Virus record (IMG/VR): IMGVR_UViG_3300025316_001101
DNA length: 64,000 nucleotides
Source: a virus
Taxonomy: Duplodnaviria; Caudoviricetes
Direction: 5' to 3' (one strand)
Below are positions 3,366-64,000 of this stretch, piece by piece. Under the pieces are notes generated by a model that saw nothing but the letters and a program-made list of their open reading frames with translations, made no database searches and was not told where the DNA came from. The position numbers and the translations under genes are program-made. Within the stretch, counting starts at the first letter, position 1; each line of letters opens with the position of its first letter.

Positions 3366-3983
3366 CTACCAATTCCACCACCAATTGCATTGTGGTTGAT
3401 AATATTGATAGCCCGGCCGCTGATAACCCGATGGTCTACAAACCGACTGCTGGTAAACCGGCTGCTGACAAACCGACTGCTGGTAAACCGGCTGCTGACA
3501 AACCGGCTGCTGACAAACCGGCTGCTGGTAAACCGGCTGCTGACAAACCGGCTGCTGGTAAACCGGCTGCTGACAAACCGGCTGCTGGTAAACCGGCTGC
3601 TGGTAAACCGGCTGCTGGTAAACCGGCTGCTGGTAAACCGGCTGCTGGTAAACCGGCTGCTGGTAAACCGGCTGCTGGTAAACCGGCTGCGATTCCCATT
3701 CCCTCACCGGCCGAATTTCATGAACATCCTGATGGGTATACGTCTCTCGCAATCCATTTCTCCACTCATGAATTGGCAATGAGCCAATCGGGTTCTGTTG
3801 AACCGGGATTGACTGGGCTACTACCGGCACCTGCTGTACCGGCACCTGCTGTACCGGCACCTGCTGTACCGGCACCTGCTGTACCGGCACCATTCCCATC
3901 GATCCTGGGGTATATGCTTCATACCCCTGCCCATACGCCACCGAACCAATCAACAACACAACCAACGTAACCAAAGTCTTCAT
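3366..3983 (-). CDS. secreted YQQPV/VQQVP pentapeptide-repeat protein
   Basis: signal peptide MKTLVTLVVLLIGSVAYG; ~17 15-nt YQQPV units and 4 QQVPV units. Confidence 0.8.
   Translation of the reverse strand: MKTLVTLVVLLIGSVAYGQGYEAYTPGSMGMVPVQQVPVQQVPVQQVPVQQVPVVAQSIPVQQNPIGSLPIHEWRNGLRETYTHQDVHEIRPVREWESQPVYQQPVYQQPVYQQPVYQQPVYQQPVYQQPVYQQPVCQQPVYQQPVCQQPVYQQPVCQQPVCQQPVYQQSVCQQPVYQQSVCRPSGYQRPGYQYYQPQCNWWWNW
3442..3691. repeat. coding 15-bp tandem repeat (GGCTGCTGGTAAACC unit)
   Basis: directly visible; variants GACAAACC/GACTGC. Confidence 0.95.
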
Positions 3984-4166
3984 AGCACACGATCCTTTCT
4001 TAGAAAAAACAAACTTCCTGTTTAATGTGCGATTAACAACACCTCAATCTGCTTCAGCCAATAACTGAAGTCTACTTTCATCGCTACAGCCGCTCCAAGC
4101 GCCGTAACTGTTACATCCAACAAGAAGCCAATAGTCCAACCGATAGCTTTCATGTTTCAGTTATCG

Positions 4167-4526
4167 TCACTTGGCTTCGGCGTCTTTAATCTGAATGTAA
4201 ATTTTCTTGGGGGCATTCTCAAAATATTTGAACAACGACGGACACAACCATCCTTCTTGCCCAACCTGTTCCCAGAGATATACGTTCCCACCCATTTCTT
4301 CTCGAACCCAAGTCAACTCAAACTCCGCAGTTGGAAATGGTGTTTCCGAAAATAGCAGTACAAAGCCCGCCTCTGGATTTTTGATCCCCTTATGTGCTGT
4401 AGCTAAATCAATCAACGTATCAGCCCCAGCTACGAAGGCTTCACGATATAAACCTACGGCAGGATCATCAAAAACCCAGATGTTTTCCCACTTGTACGGT
4501 TTGATTACGGCAATACTGTTACTCAA
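4167..4526 (-). CDS. conserved hypothetical protein (DUF6717-like)
   Basis: YKWENIWVFDDPAVGLYREAFVAGAD...WLCPSLFKYF pattern recalled from this family. Confidence 0.55.
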   Translation of the reverse strand: MSNSIAVIKPYKWENIWVFDDPAVGLYREAFVAGADTLIDLATAHKGIKNPEAGFVLLFSETPFPTAEFELTWVREEMGGNVYLWEQVGQEGWLCPSLFKYFENAPKKIYIQIKDAEAK

Positions 4527-4943
4527 TTTCTTTCCCTCGCTTGTTAAAACTTGTTGCTCACCCTGCGAATATTATACTCTGTGATTGAGGGTTGTAAACT
4601 AGAATCAGTAAAAAATACTGAACCCCCGGAGTGGCGTGTGTAGAGAATTGCCTGTAAGGAATAAACCTTACGACAAATTAGAGATTTTGCAAATTAAAAA
4701 CCAATTGCTGTTCTAAATTTTTTTCCAAAGTCTTTTCTAATTTATGCACACCCGCTTCAATTTCAGAAACTTGTGTTGATAAATTTTTCCATCGTCTATC
4801 TTCTTGAACATGGCCTTCTAATTCTTGTTTGCTGCGTACTCTATATTTCACAGTAGATGCCGGTTCCATTATTACCCCTATTATGATTAAATCATCGCCA
4901 ATAAATGTATATACAGTATCAGGAAAAAATCTTGTGAGATATC

Positions 4944-5375
4944 ATGAACGATAAACCCACGCTCAGCCAGAAATATGAGAACACTCAACGAACTCTACAA
5001 TCTGTAGTGGAAACACTCACAAGAGTTGACGTGCGGTTGGGTATTTTTATTGAAAATTTGGCCTCTCTGGAAGAGACTGTTAATTCCAATAAAGAAAAAG
5101 CCGACAGTTTGGGTATTCGCATTGCTGTCATTGAATCAAAAAGCTGTGACAGCCTTAAAGATTCAATTAAAGAACTAAAAGACGCCGTTAAAGATCTAGA
5201 CGAACGAGTAGATGACTTATCATCATCTCATCAAGAAATAAAAATGCTATCAGTCAGAAGCGATAGCTTGTGGAGCACTGTAGGCACCATCCTAATTAAA
5301 TTATTTGTGCCTATTATTATAGCTTTAACCACAGCCGCTATCATGTACCATTTTAATATTAGCAAAGGCCCTTAA
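4944..5375 (+). CDS. coiled-coil protein with C-terminal transmembrane helix (XhlA/holin-like architecture)
   Basis: heptad-rich body; hydrophobic ILIKLFVPIIIALTTAAIMY. Confidence 0.6.
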   Translation: MNDKPTLSQKYENTQRTLQSVVETLTRVDVRLGIFIENLASLEETVNSNKEKADSLGIRIAVIESKSCDSLKDSIKELKDAVKDLDERVDDLSSSHQEIKMLSVRSDSLWSTVGTILIKLFVPIIIALTTAAIMYHFNISKGP

Positions 5376-5692
5376 TAAACCGGCTCGTCCCCAAACGATA
5401 AGCTCATTTGGTTTGGAGCAGGACGATATGGCTCAGGTGGTGATTCTACCACACTAATAATTTCACATTGATAATCTGCGTCGTACTCTTCTTCGCCTAC
5501 ATAACTCCAAGTCTTAATAGTATCGGTATAGGCCATCTCTTCAACCATATCCTTGGCTTCATCCTCATCCTCAGCTTCAACAGTTACAGTGGTTCTTTCT
5601 GTTAAAGTTACTTCTGTTTTAGTTTCTCTTTCGATTTCAACCTTAAAATTTGGCATGGTATTAATCTCCTTGTCCGTATCATACCACACCAA
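5372..5692 (-). CDS. acidic hypothetical protein
   Basis: ORF track; the start may be the later ATG (MPNFK). Confidence 0.55.
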   Translation of the reverse strand: MVWYDTDKEINTMPNFKVEIERETKTEVTLTERTTVTVEAEDEDEAKDMVEEMAYTDTIKTWSYVGEEEYDADYQCEIISVVESPPEPYRPAPNQMSLSFGDEPVY

Positions 5693-5702
5693 TATTTCTT
5701 AA

Positions 5703-6098
5703 TCAAGCCGGATCTTTTGGGATGCGATGTTGATTGTTTTTCCACCAAGTTCTTATTCTCTTAGCAAGTTGTTCAATCATCTGCACCTTTTCTTCTGTTA
5801 AATCCTGAGGATTAGCTGGGCCTCCTGCAAGGCAACCCGTGCAATTAACAATGAAACCCGTGGCATACAACTGCTTATTAAATACCTCGGCCTTCTCCTG
5901 CATGCTTCGAACTTCTGATTTTAATCTTCTGTTCTTTTCCTCTAAGTCGGCCAAATGATGAGCCCTAGCAACTTGCTTTGGCGTCAAATAATGATTCACC
6001 AATCTCTCGGCCTTTTCCGCACGCTCTCTCCATTCATAATACTTTACAAACCAATCCTGACTGCTCTTTTTCCAAAACTCTACTTGATCTTCTGCCAT
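5703..6098 (-). CDS. hypothetical coiled-coil protein
   Basis: ORF track; AAGGAG RBS. Confidence 0.6.
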   Translation of the reverse strand: MAEDQVEFWKKSSQDWFVKYYEWRERAEKAERLVNHYLTPKQVARAHHLADLEEKNRRLKSEVRSMQEKAEVFNKQLYATGFIVNCTGCLAGGPANPQDLTEEKVQMIEQLAKRIRTWWKNNQHRIPKDPA

Positions 6099-6533: not shown

Positions 6534-6685
6534 TCAGCGGTGAAGGACTCGAACCCCCGACCTCCGTGTAGTAGGCTCTGATACCCGGTGTAACTCGCTC
6601 CTGCTGCATTTGCAACCACAGCAATCGCTCGTAAGAATTCGTATCTTCGCCATCACGGTGCTCCAACCAACTGAGCTAACCGCCG
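6534..6685 (-). ncRNA. tRNA-like RNA with an 85-nt structured insert in place of the anticodon loop
   Basis: acceptor CGGCGGT/ACCGCTG, D-arm GCTC-AGTTGGTTG-GAGC, stem CCGTG/CACGG enclosing 6569-6653, T-loop TTCGAGT. Confidence 0.8.
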
Positions 6686-6689
6686 TCAG

Positions 6690-6763
6690 CCGGAAGTAAA
6701 GGATTTGAACCTCTATACCTACAACTTGCGTTGTAGTGCTCTAACCAATTGAGCTAACTTCCG
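6690..6763 (-). ncRNA. anticodon-less tRNA mimic (GCAA tetraloop)
   Basis: cloverleaf with anticodon arm CTACAAC-GCAA-GTTGTAG. Confidence 0.85.
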
Positions 6764-6835
6764 TCAACGAGAATGGACTTGAACCACCGACCTCCTACAG
6801 GTTTTGTAGGTGCTCTTTCACTGAGCTACTCGTTG
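6764..6835 (-). ncRNA. tRNA-like RNA with non-canonical anticodon loop
   Basis: CAACGAG/CTCGTTG acceptor; CCTACA-AAACC-TGTAGG arm lacking U33 and purine 37; T-loop TTCAAGT. Confidence 0.8.
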
Positions 6836-6839
6836 TCAG

Positions 6840-6913
6840 CCGAAGGTAAAGGACTCGAACCTCTATCCCTACAACTTGCGTTGTAGTGCTTTAGCCAATT
6901 AAGCTAACCTCCG
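6840..6913 (-). ncRNA. anticodon-less tRNA mimic (GCAA tetraloop), paralog of 6690-6763
   Basis: same CTACAAC-GCAA-GTTGTAG arm; compensatory changes in acceptor and D stems. Confidence 0.85.
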
Positions 6914-6916
6914 TTG

Positions 6917-6943
6917 ATCCGCCCGGCTTTGCCGGGCGGATCT
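6917..6943. terminator. perfect hairpin GATCCGCCCGGC-TTT-GCCGGGCGGATC
   Basis: 12-bp inverted repeat right after the stop of the 6953 ORF; terminator or processing stem. Confidence 0.6.
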
Positions 6944-6952
6944 TACAATCTT

Positions 6953-7438
6953 TTACTCCTCAAAATATTTCTTCGCTTCTTCATAAACTGCATTCACGGA
7001 ATATTCCAATTCCTTGTAATTCAAATCAATCCACTTTCCATCGCTCTTGCGAGCCATGCGATGCAAATTAAATTGAATCCCATGATTAACGTCATCAGGA
7101 TTTGCTTTAGGCATACGGGCATTCTTGTATGCTGCAATAATATTCAAATCATCGACAGCATTATGTAACACTCTGCCCGGTCTGGGAACAAATACTGAGC
7201 AATATATCGGTTCCGGGATAGGCCGATTGCTCCGCACTTTTTTATCAGTCTTATTGAGTCGGGGTTCCCAATAGAACTTATTCTTGGGTTCTTTTACATT
7301 CCAGCGATACCAACGGGCATAATCTTTCAACGTCTGGTAATACCACTTGTGAAGCTTCTTGAGCTTCAGATATGTTTCGTAATCACACGGATAAAATCCG
7401 TATTTACCTTCATTAACCATTTGCATGACAGCACTCAT
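6953..7438 (-). CDS. hypothetical protein
   Basis: ORF track; GAAGGAG RBS before the ATG at 7438. Confidence 0.6.
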   Translation of the reverse strand: MSAVMQMVNEGKYGFYPCDYETYLKLKKLHKWYYQTLKDYARWYRWNVKEPKNKFYWEPRLNKTDKKVRSNRPIPEPIYCSVFVPRPGRVLHNAVDDLNIIAAYKNARMPKANPDDVNHGIQFNLHRMARKSDGKWIDLNYKELEYSVNAVYEEAKKYFEE

Positions 7439-7777
7439 TTTCTTCTCCTTCATAAAGTTGTTCAGAAAGTTCATCAACACATTTAATCTCTTCATCGGGC
7501 ACCTCCTTCAAAAGAACTTCCTCTGCCTTTTTGTAGATGACCGTTTCGACCACTAATCCGCCACAGACCGCAGCTTCTAACGCACTGAGATCAATAGATC
7601 TTATTTTAGCTTCTTGCACCATATCGACCAAAGAAAATGATCGCACAATTTCCCATTCTGCACTGGGATACCCGCCAAGAGCATTGGCAATGTTCATAGC
7701 GGGGAAACAGTCAGAGCATCGCAAAGCGATGGCTTGTTTTAATTGTGCATCTGTGATAGGACGTTTTAATTCAAAAG

Positions 7778-8131
7778 TCATGCCACACCCCCTTGAACGC
7801 AATCAACGTTCCGAAGGCATTGATATTTTTGAAAATGGCGACGAGAATCGCCTGATTGGGGTTCTGTTGCAAAAGCCGTCATTTGACCATCAAGGTCAGA
7901 TTCAAAAAACGGTTTGCATTTAATGCCGAACCCAGAGATCCGTCTTAGAGCATTGATAAGCTGTTCTTCGTTACGAACAGACAGGGCAACCACAAACGGG
8001 TGATCGCCATCAGACGGAATAAGAGAATTTCGAGCAAGCTCGATAATTGCGTGGGTGGATTGAACAACTTGCTGCGGAAATGAAAGATCCCTACGAACAA
8101 AAGTGTAAACATAACTGTTTACCGTTTCCAC
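7778..8131 (-). CDS. peptidyl-tRNA hydrolase 2 (PTH2)-like protein
   Basis: YTFVRRDLSFPQQVVQSTHA...VVALSV..EEQL...FFESDLDGQMTAFATEP pattern of phage PTH2-like proteins. Confidence 0.7.
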   Translation of the reverse strand: METVNSYVYTFVRRDLSFPQQVVQSTHAIIELARNSLIPSDGDHPFVVALSVRNEEQLINALRRISGFGIKCKPFFESDLDGQMTAFATEPQSGDSRRHFQKYQCLRNVDCVQGGVA

Positions 8132-8345
8132 CTCATTAATCTACGTAAATCCGCTCATGTGCATTTTTCCTTTTTCGATAATCATTTTTGTTTTTGTAGA
8201 CCTGTTCAGTATTCGGGCATATAGCCTGACAAGGGTTGACAAGTCGTTCTTTGGGAGTAACTACAAGTTGCTCAGGTGGATAATCCACACTCCAAAGCCG
8301 GTGTCTTTCGACATCATACGTATTATACGCTCGTCAGCCCAAAAG

Positions 8346-9059
8346 TCAACTCCTGGCCAAATAATTTTTCTGAAGAGCGTCCTTTGACCACAATTTCCCC
8401 TGAACGAATCCATGTCGCACCATCTTAAAACGATGGGTAATCCAGCGATTATCCTTGCTAACCTTGATGTAAATACCTTCCCGTGGTTCCTTAGTCGTAA
8501 ATGGCGACGGTTGGAGAGTGAACTCCTCAATTTGGGGGTAATTCTCTACTGGGCCACTCCAAATCAACGGCACCAAATCAAATCCACAGACAGACAACAT
8601 CTCTCTGGCTTTGTCCGTCCTTACGAACTGCCCTTCGGCATAATCATAAAGATCATAGGCCACAAACCAGCCGGGTAATTTATCGTACTCCAAACCATGC
8701 TGGGCCACCATCCACTCGCCATAAACAGAAGCGTTTGGATAAACCCCTTCCAGAGCCTCAAAAAAATCCTGATGATCGTAAAACCAATTCCAAATCGCAA
8801 CAAATTGTCTCTTGGCTGGAGTGTCCTTTTGAAAACCCTTCTTGAGAATGTGATCCCGATTACGAATTACCGGATGTCCATCAATAAGAGCCATACCACA
8901 ATTCGCACCATCGATCTTCTCCTCAACATAAACATGCGGGAGTTGAAAAATGATGTCAGCGTCGTTTGCCGTTAGGTCGCCTCGCTGAGTGTTTGGCTTC
9001 CAAGGTAAATGCAACGTCCGAGGAAATTCCGGCAATTTGTGAAGGTTCTTAGGTTTCAT
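8346..9059 (-). CDS. ATP-dependent RNA ligase (Rnl1/Rnl2-type nucleotidyltransferase)
   Basis: FPRTLHLP, motif I EEKIDGAN, VYGEW, FVAYDLYD, EGIYIK, RFKMVR. Confidence 0.88.
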   Translation of the reverse strand: MKPKNLHKLPEFPRTLHLPWKPNTQRGDLTANDADIIFQLPHVYVEEKIDGANCGMALIDGHPVIRNRDHILKKGFQKDTPAKRQFVAIWNWFYDHQDFFEALEGVYPNASVYGEWMVAQHGLEYDKLPGWFVAYDLYDYAEGQFVRTDKAREMLSVCGFDLVPLIWSGPVENYPQIEEFTLQPSPFTTKEPREGIYIKVSKDNRWITHRFKMVRHGFVQGKLWSKDALQKNYLARS

Positions 9060-9244
9060 TTTATTGATCGTAATTCATATCGTGGATATCCCACCACCAT
9101 TTCTACCATTTGATGCGAATATCTCACGCCACATATCGGACAACGATATACGCTACGTTCCTTGTTGTCGTAAAACATCCGTATGAGACATTTCGGACAA
9201 AAGCAAGTGTATCTCGGTCGTTTTAGTGGATTCTTTCTACTCAT
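9056..9244 (-). CDS. small zinc-finger protein
   Basis: CFCPKC...CPICG. Confidence 0.55.
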   Translation of the reverse strand: MSRKNPLKRPRYTCFCPKCLIRMFYDNKERSVYRCPICGVRYSHQMVEMVVGYPRYELRSIK

Positions 9245-10110
9245 TTGATTAACGCTGGATTGGTGGTGACCACCAATTCAATCAATTCACGATCTGTGAT
9301 TATTACATCTGTTTTTTCAGGAATTGGATGATACTTCATTGTAAATGGCTGATTGTCTTTGCCGCCAAAGAAAATCAGTCCCAGGGCACGCAACATGCCC
9401 GTTACTTCTAGTTCCGTACCGTCCCATGATATAACATCCATGAGACGATCCAATCGCACACATTGATATCCCTTGATTGTTCCTGGTGGGATGTCTTTCA
9501 GCGTAGCTTTCAGGCTTTTAATTTCATCTATGTTGGTCGTCTTGGCCTTAATCGCCGGTTCTATTTCGACCGCATTAAGATACAATTCTAGAAACTGTTG
9601 CTTCAAATGGAACAAAAATTTTGGCACCTGTTCTTTTTGATAGGTGGTAATTTCTCCACCCATCAAAGCTTGCGGCCTAAATCTAACCAATGTGACGATT
9701 CGTTCTGGTGTTAATTCATTCTTAGGAACAAATGGCACACCAGAAATAAACAAAGAACTGTGCTGAACAAATGGCACTGCCTTACACATATCCATGTGTG
9801 CATATGGCAAGTAGTAATATTCTCCAATTTGTTGCATGCCACATTCATATGCACCTGCGGGCAATTTATATTTTACTGCGTCCTCTTTCATGACCTTGAC
9901 TTGATCACGATAGCTTTTAGCCCTTTTAGTCGGCGTTTTCTCCTGGCTACACTTTCCATAAATGCACCTCGACAACATACAAAGGTGAATACACTTGCCA
10001 ACATTAAGCAATGGGCATTCGCCACCTTCTAGTGAACAATAATATGTAACAGCAGTCGTCCGTTCGCTTTTCTTCTCAGCTTCACGAACCTGGATTCCTA
10101 GTGTCTTCAT
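9241..10110 (-). CDS. hypothetical protein (Cys-rich N-terminus)
   Basis: ORF track; plausible start MKTLGIQ at 10110. Confidence 0.6.
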   Translation of the reverse strand: MKTLGIQVREAEKKSERTTAVTYYCSLEGGECPLLNVGKCIHLCMLSRCIYGKCSQEKTPTKRAKSYRDQVKVMKEDAVKYKLPAGAYECGMQQIGEYYYLPYAHMDMCKAVPFVQHSSLFISGVPFVPKNELTPERIVTLVRFRPQALMGGEITTYQKEQVPKFLFHLKQQFLELYLNAVEIEPAIKAKTTNIDEIKSLKATLKDIPPGTIKGYQCVRLDRLMDVISWDGTELEVTGMLRALGLIFFGGKDNQPFTMKYHPIPEKTDVIITDRELIELVVTTNPALIK

Positions 10111-11005
10111 TAGGGCTTTCCATATATCCGGTGGGAACAGTTTCAATAACCTTACGATGAATAATGCTGCCTTTACGAAACAAAATCCTTGGCACAGTTC
10201 GGCCAGGACCAGTCCAATAAAGTGCAGTGTGAGCAATCCTTATATGAGGCGACATTTCCAAACGCTTACCAATATCCCAACCAACCTTACCTCTCCGATG
10301 TGCCTTTTCAACATATTTCTTGTCGCCAGTTTCATCAAATTTTGCACGATCTCTATTTAAGACATCGGCTGTGATTACATCTGGATCGTTTTCCAATAAA
10401 CACATGCAACAACAAAGCTTAATACAATCTCTTTGCACATCCTCTGGTATCACCACGCCTATATTAGCTGTTGGTGCCATAGGAAGATCACTAATTTCCT
10501 CTTCTAGCGATTTGCCCTTCCTGCATGAGAATGTACGATATGTATAAACTCGCTGACCAAGGCCGCTATCTACCATTCTGACTTCTTCACCGATATCGAT
10601 CCAAATAGACACACCAGATACTTTTTCTGACCTTATTTCGTCTATCTTCGCCATCATAATCCCTTGAACTTCGAATTTTTCTCCTTCAAATTCAAACTTC
10701 AATGGATTGTTTTCTACTGGCAATCTCAGAAATAATTCTGGAATGGGCGGCTGCATAAAACTAGCATCAACAGCTAGATTTAATTTCAATAATGGCGGTA
10801 CGATAGCTGGCCAAATACTGTAATATGGCTGATGTGCATTATACCAATTGGCCTCCATTCCCAATTGGGTATAAACTTCATTGTGCCGTCCGCTATATCC
10901 CGTCATCAATTTGCAATAAAAATCAAACGGCTTCAATGCATGAGCATCATGATCGCCCACGTTACGGTAGAATTGATAGATTGTTTGATATTCATGAAAT
11001 TGCAT
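10082..11005 (-). CDS. hypothetical protein
   Basis: 307-aa ORF. Confidence 0.7.
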   Translation of the reverse strand: MQFHEYQTIYQFYRNVGDHDAHALKPFDFYCKLMTGYSGRHNEVYTQLGMEANWYNAHQPYYSIWPAIVPPLLKLNLAVDASFMQPPIPELFLRLPVENNPLKFEFEGEKFEVQGIMMAKIDEIRSEKVSGVSIWIDIGEEVRMVDSGLGQRVYTYRTFSCRKGKSLEEEISDLPMAPTANIGVVIPEDVQRDCIKLCCCMCLLENDPDVITADVLNRDRAKFDETGDKKYVEKAHRRGKVGWDIGKRLEMSPHIRIAHTALYWTGPGRTVPRILFRKGSIIHRKVIETVPTGYMESPNEDTRNPGS

Positions 11006-11227
11006 TACCGCACCGTGTCATGGTCAATCCACTTTTTATCGATCCACAATTTTCTTTCTTTGTATGGCTGTTGAACAAGCACATGAACTTCATTTTCATT
11101 AAAGTCTAAAATTTCACAATCAATAGATTGTTTGCTACGACGATGAGCACCCGTAAATGCAGTTGCATTAATTTTAACTGTCTTGCCTTTTTCTAAATCC
11201 ATAAATTCTCCAAAAGTAAACACATAG

Positions 11228-11301
11228 CCCGTTTGGTGGGACTCGAACCCACGACATGCGACTTTAGAGATCGCCGCTCTAACCAACTGAGCTACAAACG
11301 G
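11228..11301 (-). tRNA. amber suppressor tRNA (anticodon CTA)
   Basis: canonical cloverleaf CCGTTTG/CAAACGG, GCGAT-CT CTA AA-GTCGC, T-loop TTCGAGT, G73. Confidence 0.9.
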
Positions 11302-11317
11302 TCATACGACCATTGTA

Positions 11318-11644
11318 CTACCGCTTAGGAGGTTTGTAAAGCGACCCCCGTTCGACCATCCTACGCTTGCGTTTCTTGGGAACTATTTTTTTGGCATCTC
11401 TCACTCTTTGTCTTGCCCGCTTCTGACAAGCATTTTGAGCCGGAAGGAACTCCCTGTGTTTACTGACAATATCCCAACAAGTCCGACCATCTTCTGTTTC
11501 GGTCAGTTCGCAGGCAACATATTTTGGAATAATAGCCACCCCTTGAAAATGAGATCGCCAAGTCACTCTGTATTTGCCCGTTTGATCAAGCCAATTCTTC
11601 TCCGTCAAAGTGTCGGTCGCCAATGTCCAAGTTAATGTAATCAT
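11318..11644 (-). CDS. basic hypothetical protein
   Basis: ORF track; GAAAGGA RBS. Confidence 0.55.
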   Translation of the reverse strand: MITLTWTLATDTLTEKNWLDQTGKYRVTWRSHFQGVAIIPKYVACELTETEDGRTCWDIVSKHREFLPAQNACQKRARQRVRDAKKIVPKKRKRRMVERGSLYKPPKR

Positions 11645-11659
11645 TTTATTTCCTTTCAG

Positions 11660-11778
11660 TGGCCAAGACAGGAATCGAACCTGTATACTCTAAGTTTGTC
11701 GCAATGGCTTACTATGAACAAAGCTCACGCTTTGGACCCCCAACTCCACCTAAAGTTTTACCATTAATATACTCGGCC
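11660..11778 (-). ncRNA. tRNA-like RNA with a ~54-nt insert in the anticodon loop
   Basis: acceptor GGCCGAG/CTTGGCC, T-arm ACAGG-TTCGATT-CCTGT, D-loop AATGGTA, stem TTAGG/CTTAG around the insert. Confidence 0.65.
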
Positions 11779-12559
11779 CACATATATATTTCAGGAGGGT
11801 TTCATATGATGATATTTGCTATTCTTATGTTGGTTGTAGGTCTTTTACTTTGTATAAAGGGTAAAGCGGAACAGAAAAAACAAACTGAAAAGAAAAGTTT
11901 TGTGGTACTATTAACCACATTATTTCTTGTCTATTTGTTCCCTGGTGCTACGCTAATAATCATTGGGGTCATCCTGCTCGCTTTAATGTTTGGCGGCATA
12001 ATGCCGTTCTGAACTATGTCCCTTGATAGACCAGCACTATTTTTCGGGTATTGTCGTTTAACCACTCTACATACTCTTCTGGCCCAAGACATTCTATTTC
12101 TTTTGGGACTGCGTAGACTCCGCCGTCTTGAGGAAAAGCAAGTCTAAAATACGGTCGCAAACCAGTAGAAACCTCGCCATCTTTCGGACCACCGACAAGA
12201 TGATACTGGTAAAAGATACAATCTTCGTAACCATCTAAACCTTCGCTCATGATATATTATGCTACGAAACCCATTGTTTGTAAAGTCACGACATGTAAAC
12301 AGCACCGGCTCCAGAAAATGGCACTTGATTGTTTTGTATGGCTGAAAGAGGTACGGGTTTAATCACCATTGTGCCACGCATAAACTTTGGTAAATTAAGG
12401 TTTATTTGTTGCAAAGCCATCTGTGCTTCTTGTTTGGTAGAATACATTTTATTACGAAAAGCATCATTCGGAGTGAAACTTGCCGAATCATGCCTGAAAA
12501 TACCGTAATACGTATAAATCTGTGTGACTGTAGGTTTGGTCATACCCTATTTAGCTATA

Positions 12560-13489
12560 TCACCAAGGAATCTTTTCATCAGTTCTGCGAGTTGCCGCCT
12601 CTACAAATTCACGATATAAAATTTTTGCATCTGTGAATGTGCCCGACAATTTCAATTTATTCAACAACAAATTACGTCTAGCCACTACTTCAAAATCAAA
12701 GAACCACATGATCGGCATAAATGGATTTACAAACACAGAATCATTAGTGGCCCCGGCAACCCGTGCATCTACATCTTCATACATCAAATGATTGCCGAAT
12801 TCGCCCTCGACCGCAGGGATAATTCTCGAATGAATGTGGCTCTTGCGTTTGGATTCTTTCATCACCGCACGGCACGTCCGATCATAACTCTTAAAACAGT
12901 CCATGTTTTTAGTGAGAGCACAGCATCCAAGAAAACCACCATCTTTAATAATGCCAGCCATATTCTCCAAAGCACGATAGTGGCACACCCCTTCTTCAGT
13001 CTCCGCACCAAATCCGATACACACAAGATATTTACATGGAATATCCAATTGCGCAATAGCTGACATCGAGATAAAATCTTCAAGAACAGTACCGCCACCA
13101 GTTTCGTCACCACGCATTAGCGAATCAACACCGCCATCAATTAGAAAAATTGTAGAAATTTTGTCTTGATGTTTCTTCAAAATCTCTTCGTAACCACGGC
13201 GTACAGTTTGTACACCTTCCCGACCGATCAAATAAACTGGAACATTTACCTTAGTAGACAACAGATATTCCGGGTCATCTCCCGGCTGTGCCACCCTAGA
13301 AAATATTCCACTTTTACTGGAATAATTTGCCATTGCCTTCACTAATGTTGGCCACTCATAAAATAATGGCAAACCACCACATATATCATACCCACCACCA
13401 ATACCGGCAAGCATAACACCACCTGAATATGCTATCCGATCTGCAATGGGACCAGGAATATTTAATTGGTTAGGCTTCGTCACTGCCAT
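12560..13489 (-). CDS. DUF1152 family protein
   Basis: AGIGGGYDICGGLPL, LIDGGVDSLMRGDE, GFGAE, HYRALENMA. Confidence 0.8.
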   Translation of the reverse strand: MAVTKPNQLNIPGPIADRIAYSGGVMLAGIGGGYDICGGLPLFYEWPTLVKAMANYSSKSGIFSRVAQPGDDPEYLLSTKVNVPVYLIGREGVQTVRRGYEEILKKHQDKISTIFLIDGGVDSLMRGDETGGGTVLEDFISMSAIAQLDIPCKYLVCIGFGAETEEGVCHYRALENMAGIIKDGGFLGCCALTKNMDCFKSYDRTCRAVMKESKRKSHIHSRIIPAVEGEFGNHLMYEDVDARVAGATNDSVFVNPFMPIMWFFDFEVVARRNLLLNKLKLSGTFTDAKILYREFVEAATRRTDEKIPW

Positions 13490-13901
13490 TCTCCCTTAAA
13501 TAAGCAACCACTAATTCCGCAGCTTCTTGACTTGCAAAAGAGCCATCTGCTTTACTAATTTCAAAAGGAGAATAACAATGAATTAACCATCCATTCTCCC
13601 GAAGAATGTCATCACGGGACTTTTCTCGCTTGGCCTTAATTTCTTCCAAAGTCGGCGGCTTGTGACCTACCAGCCACACATATACATCTTCTGCCGTGTG
13701 CTGCAATTCTTGTCGAGCTTCTTCAGCACGATCTTCATATTCCCGTTCTCTTGCCAACTCTTCTTCAGATGGTTCGTGATCCCAATGCGGAAATTGTAGC
13801 CACGTTTCACCCAGCAAATTCAACGCCTTGTGAATCAGAATATAAACCTGCCCTACATCGTGAGGATAGGCATTAAACGGACTAATTTGTCGGCCTTGCA
13901 T
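13470..13901 (-). CDS. hypothetical protein
   Basis: ORF track. Confidence 0.55.
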   Translation of the reverse strand: MQGRQISPFNAYPHDVGQVYILIHKALNLLGETWLQFPHWDHEPSEEELAREREYEDRAEEARQELQHTAEDVYVWLVGHKPPTLEEIKAKREKSRDDILRENGWLIHCYSPFEISKADGSFASQEAAELVVAYLRENGSDEA

Positions 13902-13902
13902 T

Positions 13903-14526
13903 TTATTGTCCCGCTTGCATTGCCATGAAATACGCTTGGGGATTGGTCAACATGTGATGTCGAGTCCAAGCATTGCCCAACACGTCAAAACATTTTGCTT
14001 CGTCTTTATAACGATAAGCTTCATACATTTGAATTGCACAAACTTCGTGTGGCATCTCGCCAACGGCTGTACCAAGACCAGGACATAAAACAGATTTGAA
14101 GTCATATTCCTTGGCCTTTCTTAATACAGCACGAAAAGCCAAATAGGCATTTGTTGTATGACCTACATTTTCAGGCACCCGCATTGTAGGCGCACTAATT
14201 AAATAGGGAATCGGCGTATCGGCCCGAGTGTTGCGAATGTCGATTACCTCAGCATCACCCACAAGAAGCTCACCAAAATGCTTGGTGTAAATTACTCTTC
14301 GCAATTCTTCCGACATACCCCAACCAAAATATTGTGAATACACATAATCGATCCCGCCATCCATGAAACCGAAACTTTGTGCTGGCGACACAACTGCATC
14401 TACACGCATGTGTTCGCCCGGTGCAAAAATATCACCGTGCGATACGTGGACATCCTGGCATCCTTCGAACACTTTGTTCCATGCCGCAATCATTTTAACA
14501 TTCAAATCTCTCAAATAAATCTGCAT
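13903..14526 (-). CDS. macro domain (Appr-1''-p processing / ADP-ribose hydrolase) protein
   Basis: GDIF..DAVVSPAQSFGFMDGGID, LISAPTMRVP, CPGLGTAVG. Confidence 0.9.
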   Translation of the reverse strand: MQIYLRDLNVKMIAAWNKVFEGCQDVHVSHGDIFAPGEHMRVDAVVSPAQSFGFMDGGIDYVYSQYFGWGMSEELRRVIYTKHFGELLVGDAEVIDIRNTRADTPIPYLISAPTMRVPENVGHTTNAYLAFRAVLRKAKEYDFKSVLCPGLGTAVGEMPHEVCAIQMYEAYRYKDEAKCFDVLGNAWTRHHMLTNPQAYFMAMQAGQ

Positions 14527-14867
14527 CTTTAATCCTTTCTACTTGCGCAATCATACATTGTGAAACTAGACGAATAATATCCGGCCTTTATCTGACGACT
14601 ACGGATCTCTCCATTGGTAGTCAAGCAAACGCATCGACTTGAACTCCAAGATTTTGACTCCCACTCCCACCATCCAAAAATCGTTTTCATCAGTCGGCAT
14701 CCCACATGGGGTCGTAAGTGGACATTGCTTTGCCGCCATCATAGAAGCCCTGCTCGTATGCTTTATATAAAAGCGATACCTGCGGATCTTCCATGTCCAC
14801 AAGCTTTCCCAAGGTCTTCTCGTACCATTTTTTGAAATCTATGCTACTGACTCTAAAGCCCATTGTT

Positions 14868-15173
14868 TTATTCCCGATCTGGCATTATACCCCGCAGCAT
14901 CGGACCCTTCGATAGGATGATGCCACTTCCGAATTTGGAATTATACGCATTGTACACTTCGTCTTCCAACTCCATTTGGCAAACAATGTGATCAGTCCTT
15001 ACAACAATCTCATTCCCTTTACAAAAAGGGGCGAACGGCATCATGCCCAATGAGTTTTCTGAAATGAAAAACTTAGCAGGATTTTTGAGAGATACTCCAC
15101 CCGATTCAATACCTTCCGTCACATCGGCAATGACATCTTCACCGGTAATCAACTTTACATATTTAACAGCCAT
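14868..15173 (-). CDS. conserved T4-like-phage small protein (Sm-like fold suspected)
   Basis: N-terminal VKLITGEDVIADV pattern common in T4-like phages. Confidence 0.45.
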   Translation of the reverse strand: MAVKYVKLITGEDVIADVTEGIESGGVSLKNPAKFFISENSLGMMPFAPFCKGNEIVVRTDHIVCQMELEDEVYNAYNSKFGSGIILSKGPMLRGIMPDRE

Positions 15174-15212
15174 TTACTTCTCCTTTAAGGTTATGATATA
15201 CAATAGAGTGAA

Positions 15213-16445
15213 TTACCCCGCCCCTAAAGAGGGCGGGGCTTCCGTTCCAACTAACAGCCCATCTTTGACGGGTCTTATGTCAGGACAAACGGCTATTCCT
15301 CGATTCCAGCGAGGAGTTATACCTTCATTGCGAATATTAGTCGCTGCATTTTCATCTCTATCGTGATTAGTCCAGCAATTCCAACAAGTCCATTCTCTAT
15401 CGGTAAGTTCCAAATCCTTGTTTTGCCAACCACACACCGAACAAAGTTGCGATGATGGATACCATTTATCTACTTGTCGCAACTCACGACCATACCATTC
15501 GCATTTGTATTTTAGTTTTTGGATGAACGACGAAAAAGAAGCATCATTTTGTTTTCTGTGATATGCTCGTTCTCTCCATCGTTCAATTTTCCGTGTTTCT
15601 GGATTTTGGTTCTTGAGCATTTCGGCTACTGACAATGTTTCTAAAACTACAACTTGGTTCTCATTGACAATTTTAGTGCTAACTTTGTGCTGGAAATCCT
15701 CACGAACATTATGGATATGTTGCTCAAGTATATTCAACTTGAGCCATGCTTTCTTTCGTCCTTTTCCTTCTGCTTTCGTTCTGTTCTTTGCTTTTTTCAA
15801 GAACCTCAATCTTTTAGCATATTTTGTTTTAGGAAGTGGGTTCTTATACTTTGTTCCATCGCTGCCAACTATTCCATGAACATTCAGGTCTAATCCAATG
15901 GTCTTATTCATTATCGGCAGAGGAGTAATTGTGCAATTGGCTGTGATACTAATGAAGTATTGCCCCGCTTTGTTCTTGCTAACTGTGGCAAACTCAATCT
16001 CGCCTTCTAATGGACGATGGAGATATATTTCAATACCTTCCTTGAATTTAGGAAAACTTACTTTCCCATCTTCAACTTTAATATTTTGTAATACCTTGAA
16101 CGATTGCTTGCCGTGTTTCTTTTTGAAACGAGGAAATCCTTTCTTTCCTTTCTTCTGCTTCTTGATGTTAGCGAAGAAATTATCGTATGCGTTTTGCAAT
16201 GCTCTGGCTGAATATTGTAATGCTTGACTTCCTGCTTCTTTCAACCAATCATAGGTCTGTTTTAGTTGTGGAATACTGGTGGCATTATCGTAATAGTTGA
16301 GAGTTTCTTTTTCGTTCTGATATTTATTGATACGAGTTTCAAGGAAGTGATTATACAGAAATCTTACACAACCGAAGTGCTTGGCGAGTAGCACTTCTTG
16401 TTCGGCTGTTGGATTCAATCTGTATTTGTAAGAAACTAAAGTCAT
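15213..16445 (-). CDS. tnpB: TnpB RNA-guided endonuclease
   Basis: YKYRLNPTAEQ..KHFGCVRFLYN; RuvC D (GLDLN), E (VLETL), D (DRDENAA); CSVC/CWNC zinc finger. Confidence 0.95.
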   Translation of the reverse strand: MTLVSYKYRLNPTAEQEVLLAKHFGCVRFLYNHFLETRINKYQNEKETLNYYDNATSIPQLKQTYDWLKEAGSQALQYSARALQNAYDNFFANIKKQKKGKKGFPRFKKKHGKQSFKVLQNIKVEDGKVSFPKFKEGIEIYLHRPLEGEIEFATVSKNKAGQYFISITANCTITPLPIMNKTIGLDLNVHGIVGSDGTKYKNPLPKTKYAKRLRFLKKAKNRTKAEGKGRKKAWLKLNILEQHIHNVREDFQHKVSTKIVNENQVVVLETLSVAEMLKNQNPETRKIERWRERAYHRKQNDASFSSFIQKLKYKCEWYGRELRQVDKWYPSSQLCSVCGWQNKDLELTDREWTCWNCWTNHDRDENAATNIRNEGITPRWNRGIAVCPDIRPVKDGLLVGTEAPPSLGAG

Positions 16446-16600
16446 TTGTCCTCGTTGTCTTCCACATACTTGACTACTAATTCCTTGACTACACTGGAAA
16501 TAGATGCGTATTTCCGCTCACAGATTTTCTTAAACCGCTCATACAAAGTCGGCTGAATGCGTATCTGTAATTGTCCTGTGTTTTGTTCTTTATTCTCCAT
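16442..16600 (-). CDS. ribbon-helix-helix (CopG-like) protein
   Basis: QLQIRIQPTLYERFKKICERKYASISSVVKELV; coupled to tnpB by ATGA overlap. Confidence 0.75.
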   Translation of the reverse strand: MENKEQNTGQLQIRIQPTLYERFKKICERKYASISSVVKELVVKYVEDNEDK

Positions 16601-58834: not shown

Positions 58835-60085
58835 TCATTCGTAATCACTTAATTTGAATACATTGGATTCTTTAGGAATGTAATGTCGGCAATCATAGCT
58901 CAAAAACCAATACCAACGTTCGGGCTTCTCAGGTCGAACCGAATTACCCATGCCATCCGTAATCAAAAATACGGCTTCTGGATATTTGCAACCTTCGTTC
59001 AGCATCGTCTTTTGAATAAATGCTTCCAGAATACCGAATGATGTTCCACCACCGCCGTATATCTTACCCTTGGCAAGCTCCACTTCTTTCACCGCTGTAT
59101 CGAAGCAGAACAGTCTTACATCGAACCGCTTTGGATCAAGACTACGAGCCGCTTTGAAAAATCGATCTTTGAGATTCCAGCACGATCCACTGGTATCTTG
59201 AAACAAAAATACCATAATCTTGCCTTCGGTTTCGTGCTCGATTTCCATCTCCGTGGGCAGCATAAGCTTCTTATCCAAAGTGACGAATCTTCGATTCACT
59301 CTAGCCCACTGTTCAATGTCCTTCATTTCCGGCCGGTCGTATTTTCTGGACCACTCTTTTATTACAGTCTCCCACTTCTTCTTCTTTTTAACCGGCTTCA
59401 CATCAATGAAAGTCCAACCACCCGTGCCTACGCCCGCCTGTGACTCTTGCACTTCCGCTTCATAATGCTTTTCAATCGTGTCCTTGAGAGCATCTTTCTC
59501 TTCCTTGGACAACACCCCATCTAATTTACCGACTACCTCATCCCAATTAGATGTTCCCAATCCAGCATGATCATCCAACGTGCGAATCACCAACTTGAGT
59601 TTTTCTAAATTTTTGGGCATACGGTTGAAGTAATACTCAAACGATTTATCGTCAGGCATATCTTCGCCAACAAACACCGTATCGACCCAACAGCCCTTCT
59701 TGTTGAGATCGCCAAGAAGGGCTCGATCAAATCCAAATCCTCGCACCAAGGCATGATTCACAATAACATCTAGCAAATAATTTGCAACCTCATGATCCTG
59801 AGACCCCAAGGTTCTAATGCCATGATTCAAAATGATGTGCAAACATTCATGGCAGATTACAAATAGCCGTTGATACTCATTTAACGAATTCCAATACTTG
59901 GGATTGAACACGAATTCTACCCAATCGCCTTGAGAATCAAAACTAACCGCTGCCGTTTCAATCTCATTGGTGAAAACAGGACGACCCATTTTCCACAACT
60001 GATAAAAAACAGCATGGTATTCCTCTAGCTTCAAGCTCAAAGCCAGAAACTCATCGGCGCTAAGCGTCGGTGTTGGGATACTCAC
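58835..60085 (-). CDS. DUF2201-type metallopeptidase + vWA domain protein
   Basis: HECLH zinc motif, FQDTSGS MIDAS, GGGGTSF, FLITDG; GTG start overlaps the upstream TAG. Confidence 0.88.
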   Translation of the reverse strand: MSIPTPTLSADEFLALSLKLEEYHAVFYQLWKMGRPVFTNEIETAAVSFDSQGDWVEFVFNPKYWNSLNEYQRLFVICHECLHIILNHGIRTLGSQDHEVANYLLDVIVNHALVRGFGFDRALLGDLNKKGCWVDTVFVGEDMPDDKSFEYYFNRMPKNLEKLKLVIRTLDDHAGLGTSNWDEVVGKLDGVLSKEEKDALKDTIEKHYEAEVQESQAGVGTGGWTFIDVKPVKKKKKWETVIKEWSRKYDRPEMKDIEQWARVNRRFVTLDKKLMLPTEMEIEHETEGKIMVFLFQDTSGSCWNLKDRFFKAARSLDPKRFDVRLFCFDTAVKEVELAKGKIYGGGGTSFGILEAFIQKTMLNEGCKYPEAVFLITDGMGNSVRPEKPERWYWFLSYDCRHYIPKESNVFKLSDYE

Positions 60086-60223
60086 TACTTGCCCACTCCC
60101 ATTACGGCCACAGCCGCTATGATTGAAACGATTACACACTCTACGATCAAAAGCGTCAATCCAGCATTAAACGACCGATGTTGACACATCATCACCACCG
60201 CAATAATTGCCGCTGGCAAGCAA

Positions 60224-61722
60224 GTCAATTACCCCTCCCACAAGGGGAGGGGCTTGGGATTTGTCAAACTAATGTTTTAACTAATCGCTTAGAAGAAGTT
60301 TGACGAATTGCTTCAATCCTTATTCTTCTCGGTGTATTGACGACACCACTATTGAGTTGAGTAATTAAACTCTTCCCTTTACCTTCTTTTAACATTATAC
60401 CCAATGCTCCATTTACATCTGCATTAAGCACTATTCCTGTTGATGACTTAAATAATCCTCTTGGGTATCTTTTTCCCATATATTCATCATGATGACACAT
60501 TACTTCACCAGCAAGATGATCGCATTTACTTGTGTATGCTTCTTCCCTTGCTTTGAAACTAATACCATTTAACATTAGTTTTGATTTTAGTTTTTGAACA
60601 AACTTAGCAAAAGGAAGATTTACGAAGTTTTGGTTGTTCTTATCGCCGTGATTAACACCATTTTGTGCCATCCATCCTTCGCCAATTACCACATTACCAA
60701 CATCATTATTCAAACAATATTGAAGAATGAAATTAGAATAATTATTTAAGTAATCATTGATTTGTCGCCCTCGTCTTGCTCCAAGCCAACGAATACGCTT
60801 ACTGCTTTTCTTTCCTTGCTTTTCAAGTATTGATTGTAATTCTGCTTTTGTTTTGTTATATAATCTGTTTAGTGATTTAAGTTCCCGACCATCCATAATG
60901 AATGAGCGTCCAGATTTTTCATCAAGACAAGTAGCAAAATTATTTACACCAATGTCAATACTTAGACAATTCTTTCCTTCACTTGCTTTCGGTTCTTCTA
61001 CTTCATACACATATTCAATCTCAAAGTATTCAGCATCTAATTTGGGAATAATGCGTATTTCTTTAATTTTATGTTTTTTAATACATTCGGGTATTAGATA
61101 TTTGAATTCTTTGAGTCTGTATTTGCTTTTGAGAGTTGGTGTAATCCTAACTTTGATTTCAGTTTTCCATAATCCTTTATTGTTTGGAAGAATGAATGGA
61201 AAATATCCATCCTTGTCCAAGTATCCAGGTATTTTAACTTCTCCTACATAATGACCCAATCTCTTACTTCGTAATAATCCAAAGAATGAAGCGTATGCTC
61301 TATCAACCATCATCATTGACTGCTGACTTGCTAATGTTGGCATTGATTTGTATGAATGATGGTTTTTAACTGAATGATATGCTGTTGCGTAAGTCAGGCG
61401 TTCTCCACACTTAAAAAAATGTTGTCGCATTGCGTAAAGAGTGCTGTTGTAAACATCCTTACTTTTACGGCACATTGACTTCAAGAAGTAATGTTCTTTT
61501 TGCGTTAGACCTTTGAGTTTGTTTTTCAATACAAGTAGCATACTAAATTATATAGTATGCTAAGTTTATTTTTTCATAACTTTTTCAAAATAATTTTCAT
61601 TATGCGGGCTTACATCCCCCACCACAAGGGTTTGACCTAGTTCGCATTTTCGTTCGCTACGCTCACTCAACGCTCACAGGTCAAACATTCCTGCGGAATG
61701 TGGAGGTTTTCGCCCGCTTTCT
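60224..61722 (-). mobile_element. non-autonomous IS200/IS605-family element (tnpB only)
   Basis: TTTAT target 5' of the left end; right-end hairpin CCCCTCCC-ACAAG-GGGAGGGG followed by TAATTGAC. Confidence 0.85.
60264..61541 (-). CDS. tnpB: TnpB RNA-guided endonuclease
   Basis: RuvC D (SIDIGVNN), E (VIGEG / REEAYTSK), D (NADVNGALGI); reduced zinc finger. Confidence 0.92.
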   Translation of the reverse strand: MLLVLKNKLKGLTQKEHYFLKSMCRKSKDVYNSTLYAMRQHFFKCGERLTYATAYHSVKNHHSYKSMPTLASQQSMMMVDRAYASFFGLLRSKRLGHYVGEVKIPGYLDKDGYFPFILPNNKGLWKTEIKVRITPTLKSKYRLKEFKYLIPECIKKHKIKEIRIIPKLDAEYFEIEYVYEVEEPKASEGKNCLSIDIGVNNFATCLDEKSGRSFIMDGRELKSLNRLYNKTKAELQSILEKQGKKSSKRIRWLGARRGRQINDYLNNYSNFILQYCLNNDVGNVVIGEGWMAQNGVNHGDKNNQNFVNLPFAKFVQKLKSKLMLNGISFKAREEAYTSKCDHLAGEVMCHHDEYMGKRYPRGLFKSSTGIVLNADVNGALGIMLKEGKGKSLITQLNSGVVNTPRRIRIEAIRQTSSKRLVKTLV

Positions 61723-61798
61723 ATAAACCAATAGCGTGTCAATATACTCCACACGCACAGAAAGAACAAAATAATTGCAAATTCCACTTCATTATCTC

Positions 61799-63433
61799 CT
61801 ATTTACGAGTCCAACTTTTACCACCAAGCCCTCTGTATGTAGAGGGAGCAGGCACAGGTGTGGCTACCGGCACTTTCGGCGGTCTGCCACGACCACGCTT
61901 GGTTGGCAAAGCAATAGCACTTCCATTAGACGTAGATACGCCTGTAGCCCTGGGACAAAGGATTTTGCCGCCATGACCCGCCGCACACAACTTGTTCAAC
62001 AGATCGGGGAAAGCCCCACCGTACTTTTTATAAATTTCCGGCCAATGAATATTTTCATTCTTGGCAATTTGATCAATAGCGTGATTTGCCATTCCCACCA
62101 TACCATTCAACCGAATTGAATTTTTCAACGTGGTTAAATGTGACTTCTTACAAATTAACGCCAATATCTTCAACACTTCTACGGCTTCTGCACTTGTCAT
62201 GGTCGGCGGCAATCGACGAGCCATATCCTCCAAAACCTTCTTACGGTCGTAGGTCTGCTGTCTCTTGCCAAGCTGATTCTTCCAAAGATCGGTCGCAGCC
62301 CTAAACGGATTGCTCGGTGTATAAATTGCACCTGCGTGCGTATTAAACTTCGGCTTATCTGGCATGCTATGCCCGATCATCTCTCCACCACTGGTAATAA
62401 ATCCTACATTTAGAGCATTCAAAGCATCGGGATGACTCGCCAATGCCTTCTTCAGCTTCTTGGTCAATGCTTTGTTTTGATCGGCTGTCAAAATTTCCGC
62501 CACTATTGCACGTAACGACTCATTCGTATCTACATGCTTCATTGTCCAATCAAACACTGCATCTTCGGCAACGATCAGCGAACTAATCTTTTCATCAGAC
62601 ATCAGCGGAAGAAAGTAATCCCTAAACACTTCCTCATTCACAATATAATTAACGGCCGCTGCATAGGTATTTTCAGTCGTTACAAATTTCCTAGCTTCGT
62701 CCTTGTTGTTGGTAGACATCAATTCCCGCAAACGATCCATCACAGGACCAGTCTTAATGATCGTTAGCAACTTCGATACATTGGCCTTAGGTGGCAACAC
62801 ATCTCGTACATCCCCTTGCTTGGTCAAAATATCCAGGGCATAATCCAATCGCCGGGGCGAACAAGCATCCTTCATTTCAACTGGCAATTCATTCCACCAA
62901 GAAATTGCCGCTCTGGATGTATCGGCACCATAGACCTTGGTAAAATAATCTAGATCCGGCTTATAAGGAATGTCCAATGAAACGTGGAATCGGTCCTTTT
63001 GCGCCGGGTCCAATCGTTCAACATCGTATTCATCTTCATCGTCTGGGTTGATCGCCGCCCACACGATACGCAAATTCTTAAATTTCTTGCCGTTAATGCT
63101 CTTGAACTGCATCAACTCCATTACAGCATTACGCACCTTCTTATGAGCACGATTGAACTCATCGAAAAATAACGCCTCGATCTGGTCCAACTGAAATTCC
63201 AATGGTCGCACCAAATCAATATAAGGCACACCCTCGGCAGTCACTTGCTCTTTAGGAATTCCAATAAAATCTACCCACGGGTCCATCGTAGCAGCAGAGA
63301 AATACTTCCACCGCAAATTGGCCTTATCAAATGCCTGGGTGATTATAGCTGTCTTACCGACACCGTGACGACCAACAAACAATACGTTATAACCGTGCTT
63401 GATCCAAAACTCTAACTTCGCTTGACTAATCAT
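61799..63433 (-). CDS. MoxR-like AAA+ ATPase with C-terminal AT-hook
   Basis: Walker A GRHGVGKT, Walker B LFFDEFNR, AAINP, LDPAQKDRF; tail KRGRGRPPK. Confidence 0.9.
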   Translation of the reverse strand: MISQAKLEFWIKHGYNVLFVGRHGVGKTAIITQAFDKANLRWKYFSAATMDPWVDFIGIPKEQVTAEGVPYIDLVRPLEFQLDQIEALFFDEFNRAHKKVRNAVMELMQFKSINGKKFKNLRIVWAAINPDDEDEYDVERLDPAQKDRFHVSLDIPYKPDLDYFTKVYGADTSRAAISWWNELPVEMKDACSPRRLDYALDILTKQGDVRDVLPPKANVSKLLTIIKTGPVMDRLRELMSTNNKDEARKFVTTENTYAAAVNYIVNEEVFRDYFLPLMSDEKISSLIVAEDAVFDWTMKHVDTNESLRAIVAEILTADQNKALTKKLKKALASHPDALNALNVGFITSGGEMIGHSMPDKPKFNTHAGAIYTPSNPFRAATDLWKNQLGKRQQTYDRKKVLEDMARRLPPTMTSAEAVEVLKILALICKKSHLTTLKNSIRLNGMVGMANHAIDQIAKNENIHWPEIYKKYGGAFPDLLNKLCAAGHGGKILCPRATGVSTSNGSAIALPTKRGRGRPPKVPVATPVPAPSTYRGLGGKSWTRK

Positions 63434-63982: not shown

Positions 63983-64000
63983 GCCGAAATGATCCTCAGC

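Follow-up and report, generated by a model that had tools for sequence, protein, structure and literature searches.

The window analysed here, a 64,000-nt stretch of viral DNA (Caudoviricetes; IMG/VR record IMGVR_UViG_3300025316_001101), corresponds to G000:C1:131025-195024 on the minus strand, within an IMG/VR virus record of 259 kb. It contains a 1499-bp element of the IS200/IS605 family, designated E4 (60224..61722), that splits a 67-codon gene for a small membrane protein; the split gene is flanked by genes for an AAA ATPase and a VWA protein. E4 encodes TnpB but contains no tnpA, and is thus a non-autonomous member of its family; it is very probably a recent, selfish and polymorphic knock-out of a dispensable accessory gene that resists reversion. 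Judging from tblastn matches to LR756511 and phiRSL1, the genome belongs to a giant freshwater phage. All genes of the region lie on the minus strand, and all window positions listed are read on that strand.

The interrupted gene and its natural empty site

The upstream neighbour of E4 in the operon is the AAA ATPase gene (MoxR/dynein-like P-loop; 61799..63433), which ends in TAG (61801-61799). The downstream neighbour is a gene for a metallopeptidase-like and VWA-like protein with a Pfam DUF2201_N domain and a GTG start (58835..60085). An AGGAG Shine-Dalgarno sequence (61796..61800) overlaps the AAA stop codon and stands 8 nt before a GTG start codon (61787-61785) that opens the 5' part of a split open reading frame (ORF; 61723..61787). 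This part comprises codons 1–21 and two bases of codon 22 (translation P0001). In the occupied allele, the frame from GTG 61787 is open through the sequence TTTAT, runs into non-coding DNA and meets a stop after 37 codons. The same frame resumes for 45 codons on the other side of the element, where the 3' part (60085..60223) supplies the last base of codon 22, codons 23–67 and a TAG stop (translation P0002). When position 61723 is joined to 60223, the result is a 204-nt ORF of 67 codons plus TAG (60087-60085), with the insertion point inside codon 22; the G of the stop codon is the first base of the in-frame GTG with which the downstream gene starts (60085-60083). Kyte-Doolittle averages of the 67-residue protein give three hydrophobic peaks, at approximately residues 3–16, 22–34 and 44–65. 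An earlier note on this DNA had described a 204-nt GTG ORF with an AGGAG site, 67 amino acids, three hydrophobic stretches and a TAG overlapping the vWA GTG, and each of these statements was confirmed.

When the portion of the split ORF beyond the element (60085..60223) was used alone as query, a public protein of 67 residues (P0003) was retrieved that is letter-for-letter equal to the translation of the joined ORF; P0001 corresponds to its residues 1–21 and P0002 to its residues 23–67. This protein is present on three JGI contigs, and a twin with a Met start (P0005) is present on eight Logan/ENA contigs (11 contigs in total), where independent pipelines called the 67-residue ORF as a gene. 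A 34-residue fragment (P0004), as expected from the split allele, is found on two contigs, one of them of 102 kb. The cluster of this fragment also holds a 298-residue protein (P0006), which is unrelated to the fragment and was treated as a clustering artefact.

Metagenome contigs were scanned for the predicted junction, and one of them, L013 (Ga0194056_10005909, 5708 bp), carries TTTAT joined directly to TTGCTT. By blastn, L013 positions 54–2331 align without gaps to window positions 64000–61723 with 98.3% identity, and positions 2332–5707 align to 60223–56845 with 94.5% identity. The contig therefore lacks exactly the 1499 bp from 60224 to 61722, and has neither a target duplication nor a scar; the AGGAG site is the same as in the window. 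The agreement of the joined ORF with both the public protein and the L013 DNA far exceeds chance. The earlier note had staked its proposal on empty-site alleles not having a different junction or lacking the ORF; the search for such alleles was run, and L013 has the predicted junction and an intact ORF. Exact-pattern scans of IMG/VR, in which records close to that of the window may be absent, returned no empty junction, no occupied right junction and no empty site of E5, a second element in the window (see below). The best reading of the two sequences is that the insertion is recent and polymorphic, and that closely related phages in nature keep the intact gene.

Within the 204 nt, the window and L013 differ at five positions, and all five differences are synonymous third-position transitions. 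The AAA and VWA genes each have 25 synonymous versus 3 non-synonymous differing codons, so the small ORF evolves like its coding neighbours. The ORF might instead be open by accident within a spacer, the element having landed in non-coding DNA: it is short, hydrophobic and begins with GTG, no homologues were found, and it is missing from distant operons. However, five synonymous third-position substitutions out of five would have a probability of about 0.1–0.4% without constraint (our estimate), the Shine-Dalgarno sequence is good and well placed, the stop overlaps the next start, and independent pipelines called the gene. A chance frame is accordingly very unlikely, and this reading was rejected on the substitution pattern. 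On the basis of that pattern, the Shine-Dalgarno sequence and the stop/start overlap, the 67-codon ORF is accepted as a real small membrane-protein gene. The proposal that a TnpB element interrupts such a gene is thus upheld by the intact public protein, the synonymous-only differences and the empty-site allele, and the annotation is corrected to include a real 67-codon gene that the insertion had hidden.

The distribution of this gene is narrow. No homologues of the small protein were found outside its own cluster by a word-based search, by phmmer over 1.8 billion representatives or in PHROGs, and the ESM Atlas gave sub-threshold leads alone (0.78 or less). Seven viral contigs (L006-L012) contain the same operon, with VWA proteins of 41–46% identity; in these, the AAA stop codon overlaps the DUF2201 start or lies within a few bases of it, with no ORF between them. 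Because these seven related operons have no small ORF, the gene is a lineage-specific insert separating two coupled genes rather than a conserved subunit. The earlier description of its product as the membrane partner of a MoxR/vWA complex is therefore not sustained: the gene is absent from all seven relatives, known homologues of the protein are confined to its own cluster, and the label derives from adjacency alone.

Element ends, target motif and guide flank

The left end of E4 abuts TTTAT (61723..61727), the insertion target and predicted target-adjacent motif (TAM) of TnpB, which lies directly 5' of the element and with which the first L013 alignment ends at 61723. The left occupied junction reads TTTAT followed by AGAAAGCGGG, and the right occupied junction reads TAATTGAC followed by TTGCTTGCC; TTGCTT adjoins E4 on its 3' side, so that the order is TTTAT, element, TTGCTT. 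The segment absent from L013 coincides with the ends that E4 has in common with five sibling copies (E1-E3, E5 and E6). The ends, the TTTAT TAM and the guide-matching flank that were previously proposed from the window alone all agree with these sibling copies and with the natural empty-site allele.

E4 has no terminal inverted repeats; instead, subterminal imperfect hairpins are found at the left and right ends. The non-coding left end (181 nt; 61542..61722) forms a branched stem-loop (approximately 61604-61717) that starts 6 nt from the tip, with a DNA folding energy of -22.9 kcal/mol. Its outer stem shows compensatory changes among aligned copies (GCGGGC/GCCCGC versus GACGCC/GGCGTC). The right end (60224..60263) contains a 9-bp G+C-rich hairpin (60231-60253), located 8 nt from the tip and followed by TAATTGAC, and is presumed to be the 3' end of the omegaRNA scaffold. 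The motif CCCTTGTGG..GGGG is common to both ends. The structured regions of the element, which comprise the ends and the 3' region, have z-scores of -3.5 (left end), -2.2 and -3.2, the last for the final 217 nt of E4, which fold better than shuffled controls. An Rfam scan gave no family matching the predicted omegaRNA region.

A branched insert of approximately 70 nt within the left-end hairpin is conserved in the left ends of all sibling copies; its sole Rfam match is a chance-level RAGATH-7 hit. IStrons are group I introns fused to IS605-family elements (10.1101/2023.11.20.567912), and this left-end structure, unusually elaborate, together with the co-orientation of the element with the operon, could suggest a similar RNA-level repair, in which E4 would be spliced from the operon mRNA and the membrane protein would still be made. 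A permissive Rfam scan of positions 59800-62000 (E up to 1) nevertheless detected no group I or group II intron; the single RAGATH-7 match, with 17 bits, falls far below the gathering score of 112, and the 181-nt left end is too short for a group I core. Splicing is thus the least probable of the readings considered, scarcely to be expected, and was rejected for lack of any intron family in that scan.

The position of the right-end boundary sets the flank that matches the predicted omegaRNA guide, TTGCTTGCCAGCGGCAATTA (60204..60223), and the flank read from 60223 to 60204 probably acts as that guide. L013 matches this flank in all of the first 18 bases (18/18) and has a C at position 19; with the position-19 variant of both alleles, the predicted guide target is TTGCTTGCCAGCGGCAAT(T/C)A. 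Immediately before the guide match, the occupied allele has TTGAC and not TTTAT. No other site with the TAM and the guide match is present in the 259-kb record.

The conserved right-end tip has a further feature in the occupied allele. Positions 60226-60238 supply GGAGG and TAA and then an in-frame TTG (60228), which opens a 47-codon ORF (60085-60228) that encodes the last two hydrophobic segments and ends at the VWA start. No convincing terminator was found after tnpB, and E4 is co-oriented with the operon. Since the right end supplies this GGAGG/TAA/TTG start, translational coupling to the VWA gene might survive the insertion, and polarity on the downstream gene might be lessened.

The TnpB protein

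The tnpB gene (60264..61541) encodes a 425-residue member of the RNA-guided nuclease family, with Pfam matches to OrfB_IS605 (8e-22) and to the Cas12f1-like TNB domain (8e-8), both of which exceed the cut-offs. All three residues of the RuvC triad (D196, E288 and D375) are present. D196 and D375 are invariant in the clade, and the RuvC-II glutamate, E288 in the TnpB of E4, is replaced in some clade members. A profile of the clade (17 sequences) matches Cas12f structures, with the RuvC region aligned to 8j3r; single-sequence phmmer of TnpB against PDB sequences gave no match. The protein has more than 5600 homologues, including a 97%-identical TnpB encoded on a 326-kb contig, and a TnpB-based search for related loci returned one relative with 32% identity.

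The CxxC zinc finger is missing from the TNB domain, in which the corresponding region (residues 338–352, window positions ~60486-60530) reads TSKCDHLAGEVMCHHDEYMGKR. The CxxC pairs are likewise missing across the clade, including the Thermococcus and Methanothermococcus homologues. The loss is therefore a trait of the clade and not a sign of decay.

A palindrome with 10-bp arms (TAGCATACTA and TAGTATGCTA) and TATAAT in its loop (61536..61562) overlaps the tnpB start codon. It could be a promoter or operator, or a hairpin that limits tnpB translation. A similar palindrome is found upstream of tnpB in sibling E2.

Sibling elements and the source of transposase

Six copies are present in the 259-kb record: E1 (G000:C1:661-2580), E2 (G000:C1:18190-19762), E3 (G000:C1:63573-65263), E4 (G000:C1 133303-134801), E5 (window 16877-15208, G000:C1 178148-179817) and E6 (G000:C1:207119-208812). 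E5, also on the minus strand of the window, carries a TnpB of a different clade, but has the same end architecture and the TAM TTTAT. Similarity among the left ends starts directly after TTTAT in five of the six copies and after TTCAT in the remaining one (E2), and the right ends of all six finish at GGGGTAATT(G/C)AC, beyond which the flanks are unrelated. The five siblings of E4 occupy unrelated sites. The signs of mobility in this family are thus six copies with conserved ends at unrelated sites, together with the presence/absence alleles. The 33-nt right end of E4 also recurs at three places in other IMG/VR contigs, again ending in ...TAATTGAC.

One of these three places is an ORF-less miniature element of approximately 330 bp in another viral contig (L017:2612-2941, IMGVR_UViG_3300029258_003252). 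It follows TTCAT, shares 86.5% identity with E4 in the left end and has the same right-end hairpin. Within the 259-kb record, all six elements are co-oriented, on the strand with a strong positive GC skew and most of the genes, an arrangement with a chance of approximately 3%. Two explanations would suit this shared orientation: the elements insert into the lagging-strand template, or selection favours copies that run in the direction of transcription.

The 181-nt left end of E4 holds no ORF for a transposase. Sibling E1, however, encodes an intact TnpA (G000:C1:879-1304) that scores 118.7 bits to Y1_Tnp (PF01797) and has the HIH motif and a C-terminal Tyr (RYIEEQ). In E1, tnpA is oriented divergently from tnpB, and the ends of E1 share the architecture of those of E4. 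The transposase is therefore available in trans, as the earlier note had made a proviso of its proposal, and cross-mobilisation of E4 by the E1 TnpA is plausible; it is no stronger than that because the stem sequences of the E4 and E1 hairpins differ.

E1 adjoins large paralogues that match a phage family: three adjacent paralogous genes of 993–1176 codons (L019:4087-14029, G000:C1 ~6586-16528) all belong to phrog_25468, of unknown function.

Retention, homing and reversion

In the proposed mechanism, E4 inserted directly 3' of TTTAT in the small membrane-protein gene, without target duplication. Mobility would be provided by the Y1 TnpA of an autonomous sibling copy in a single-strand 'peel and paste' reaction. 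The subterminal hairpins would be the features recognised by this enzyme, and its cuts would fall directly behind TTTAT at the left end and TAATTGAC at the right end. TnpB would load an omegaRNA with a 3' guide transcribed from the flank, TTGCTTGCCAGCGGCA..., and the TnpB-omegaRNA complex would cut element-free copies of the site (TTTAT plus guide match), whether these arise from excision or are brought by a co-infecting phage. Repair of the cut by recombination with an occupied genome would then reinstate the element. A role of TnpB in homing and retention is described in PMC8612924 and 10.1101/2023.11.20.567912. TnpB would oppose reversion because its target, TTTAT with the guide flank, is precisely the restored gene, and the occupied allele would be protected because TTGAC instead of TTTAT precedes its guide match. 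The system is thus expected to be built for retention and homing and not for toggling.

The earlier note had inferred the opposite, a reversible switch for the membrane partner of the complex; in a regulated form, precise excision and re-insertion by TnpA would act as phase variation and tune this partner. In favour of a switch, the chemistry allows scarless excision, L013 shows that the restored allele occurs naturally, a TnpA is encoded in the same record, and neither half of the gene has acquired mutations at the protein level. A recent insertion explains the unmutated halves equally well, however, and the five siblings at unrelated sites are as selfish spread predicts. With the small gene missing from seven distant operons and without homologues, there is no conserved partner to be tuned; no regulatory input is evident; and TnpB targets exactly the restored allele, which would bias the system against reversion. 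A switch is consequently improbable: no sign of regulated excision was seen, and the TnpB of E4 would be expected to cut the restored gene, in line with 10.1101/2023.11.20.567912.

Several points weigh against a mobile, reversion-resistant E4 with an active nuclease. The TnpB clade is without the CxxC pairs and some of its members are without the RuvC-II Glu, so that nuclease activity is not guaranteed. The empty allele may be ancestral or a revertant, both of which are compatible with the two alleles. The stem sequences in the hairpins of E4 are not those of E1, the copy with TnpA. Finally, E1 occupies the very end of the record, which is labelled 'provirus' in IMG/VR, in a stretch whose GC skew differs; E1 could be host DNA, although the large paralogues next to it match a phage family.

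The selfish reading of E4 also has a consequence at the level of phage populations. TnpB-omegaRNA might serve as a weapon or homing drive between phages, cutting co-infecting element-free relatives and thereby excluding or converting them, much like the free-standing homing endonucleases in T-even phages. Both alleles circulate among phages that are 94–98% identical, the L013 target has the TAM and guide positions 1–18, the occupied allele is protected by its lack of a TAM, and marker exclusion by phage homing endonucleases is known (PMC13565253). Against this, such a drive would follow from the selfish insertion itself and is not a separate mechanism, and in the two alleles compared there is no clear co-conversion tract or gradient in the flanks near the junction. 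Nor is there a significant excess of target-escape changes, with three synonymous changes in the 30 nt after the TAM versus approximately 1.6 expected. A drive of this kind is possible but doubtful. The broader suggestion, that the TnpB elements of this giant phage lineage are RNA-guided homing or exclusion drives, spread by recombination with TnpA only seeding new sites, is equally tentative. It follows from the mechanism and, since both alleles co-circulate, is the most interesting of the remaining readings; if true, these elements would do with an RNA guide what the Seg/Mob endonucleases do in T-even phages, as a natural counterpart to them.

Comparison with known systems

E4 resembles ISDra2 of Deinococcus radiodurans, IS608 of Helicobacter pylori and the IS1341-like members that contain tnpB only, in that insertion occurs 3' of a fixed five-nucleotide motif, which also serves as the TAM (TTGAT in ISDra2, TTTAT in E4). 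The absence of terminal inverted repeats and of a target duplication, the subterminal hairpins and the scarless empty site are likewise typical of the IS200/IS605 family, as are the order of tnpB and a right end whose guide runs into the flank, and the Y1 TnpA in an autonomous sibling copy. In contrast to ISDra2 and IS608, E4 resides in a giant freshwater phage and not in a bacterial chromosome, and the left-end hairpin, with its branched insert, is far more elaborate than the classical ends. The TnpB of E4 also differs from the reference IS200/IS605 proteins by the missing CxxC pairs, and is too distant from solved structures for a single-sequence match.

Like the T-even homing endonucleases (Seg, Mob and I-TevI), E4 carries a selfish nuclease gene directed at related phages that have the allele without the element, with a presence/absence polymorphism between near-identical genomes; unlike them, its recognition is predicted to be RNA-guided (guide plus TAM), and it has an additional, transposase-dependent route. 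E4 disrupts its host gene and, unlike an intron, does not splice out. It shares with IStrons the sense orientation of a tnpB-bearing IS605-family element in a coding gene, but lacks an intron core in the Rfam scan.

In bacteria, the TnpB-bearing members of the IS200/IS605 family are well understood. TnpB genes are also common in phages (PMC12607003), and the kind of element is therefore not new. E4 is instead a clean natural example, in which the ends, the TAM, the guide flank and the cognate empty target are defined at single-base resolution and a candidate TnpA donor is present in the same genome. Both alleles are documented in the wild, in closely related giant phages, and form a ready substrate set for examining TnpB as a possible driver of homing or exclusion among phages.

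Neighbouring operon genes

The AAA gene product has weak matches to Pfam AAA_5, AAA_3 and AAA_7 and matches phrog_1297 ('ATPase', E 2e-17); tblastn with the gene gave matches in the giant phages LR756511 (595 kb) and phiRSL1. The product of the downstream gene contains HECLH in the metallopeptidase-like domain and DTSGS...ITDG in the C-terminal VWA-like part, and its relatives align to it from residue 5–8, counted from GTG 60085-60083. As in MoxR-type AAA/VWA pairs, E4 thus sits between a gene for an AAA_5-like ATPase and a gene with HExxH and a MIDAS-like DTSGS motif. Unlike other such pairs, the VWA partner of this phage has a DUF2201_N metallopeptidase-like domain, and the small membrane-protein gene is specific to the lineage.

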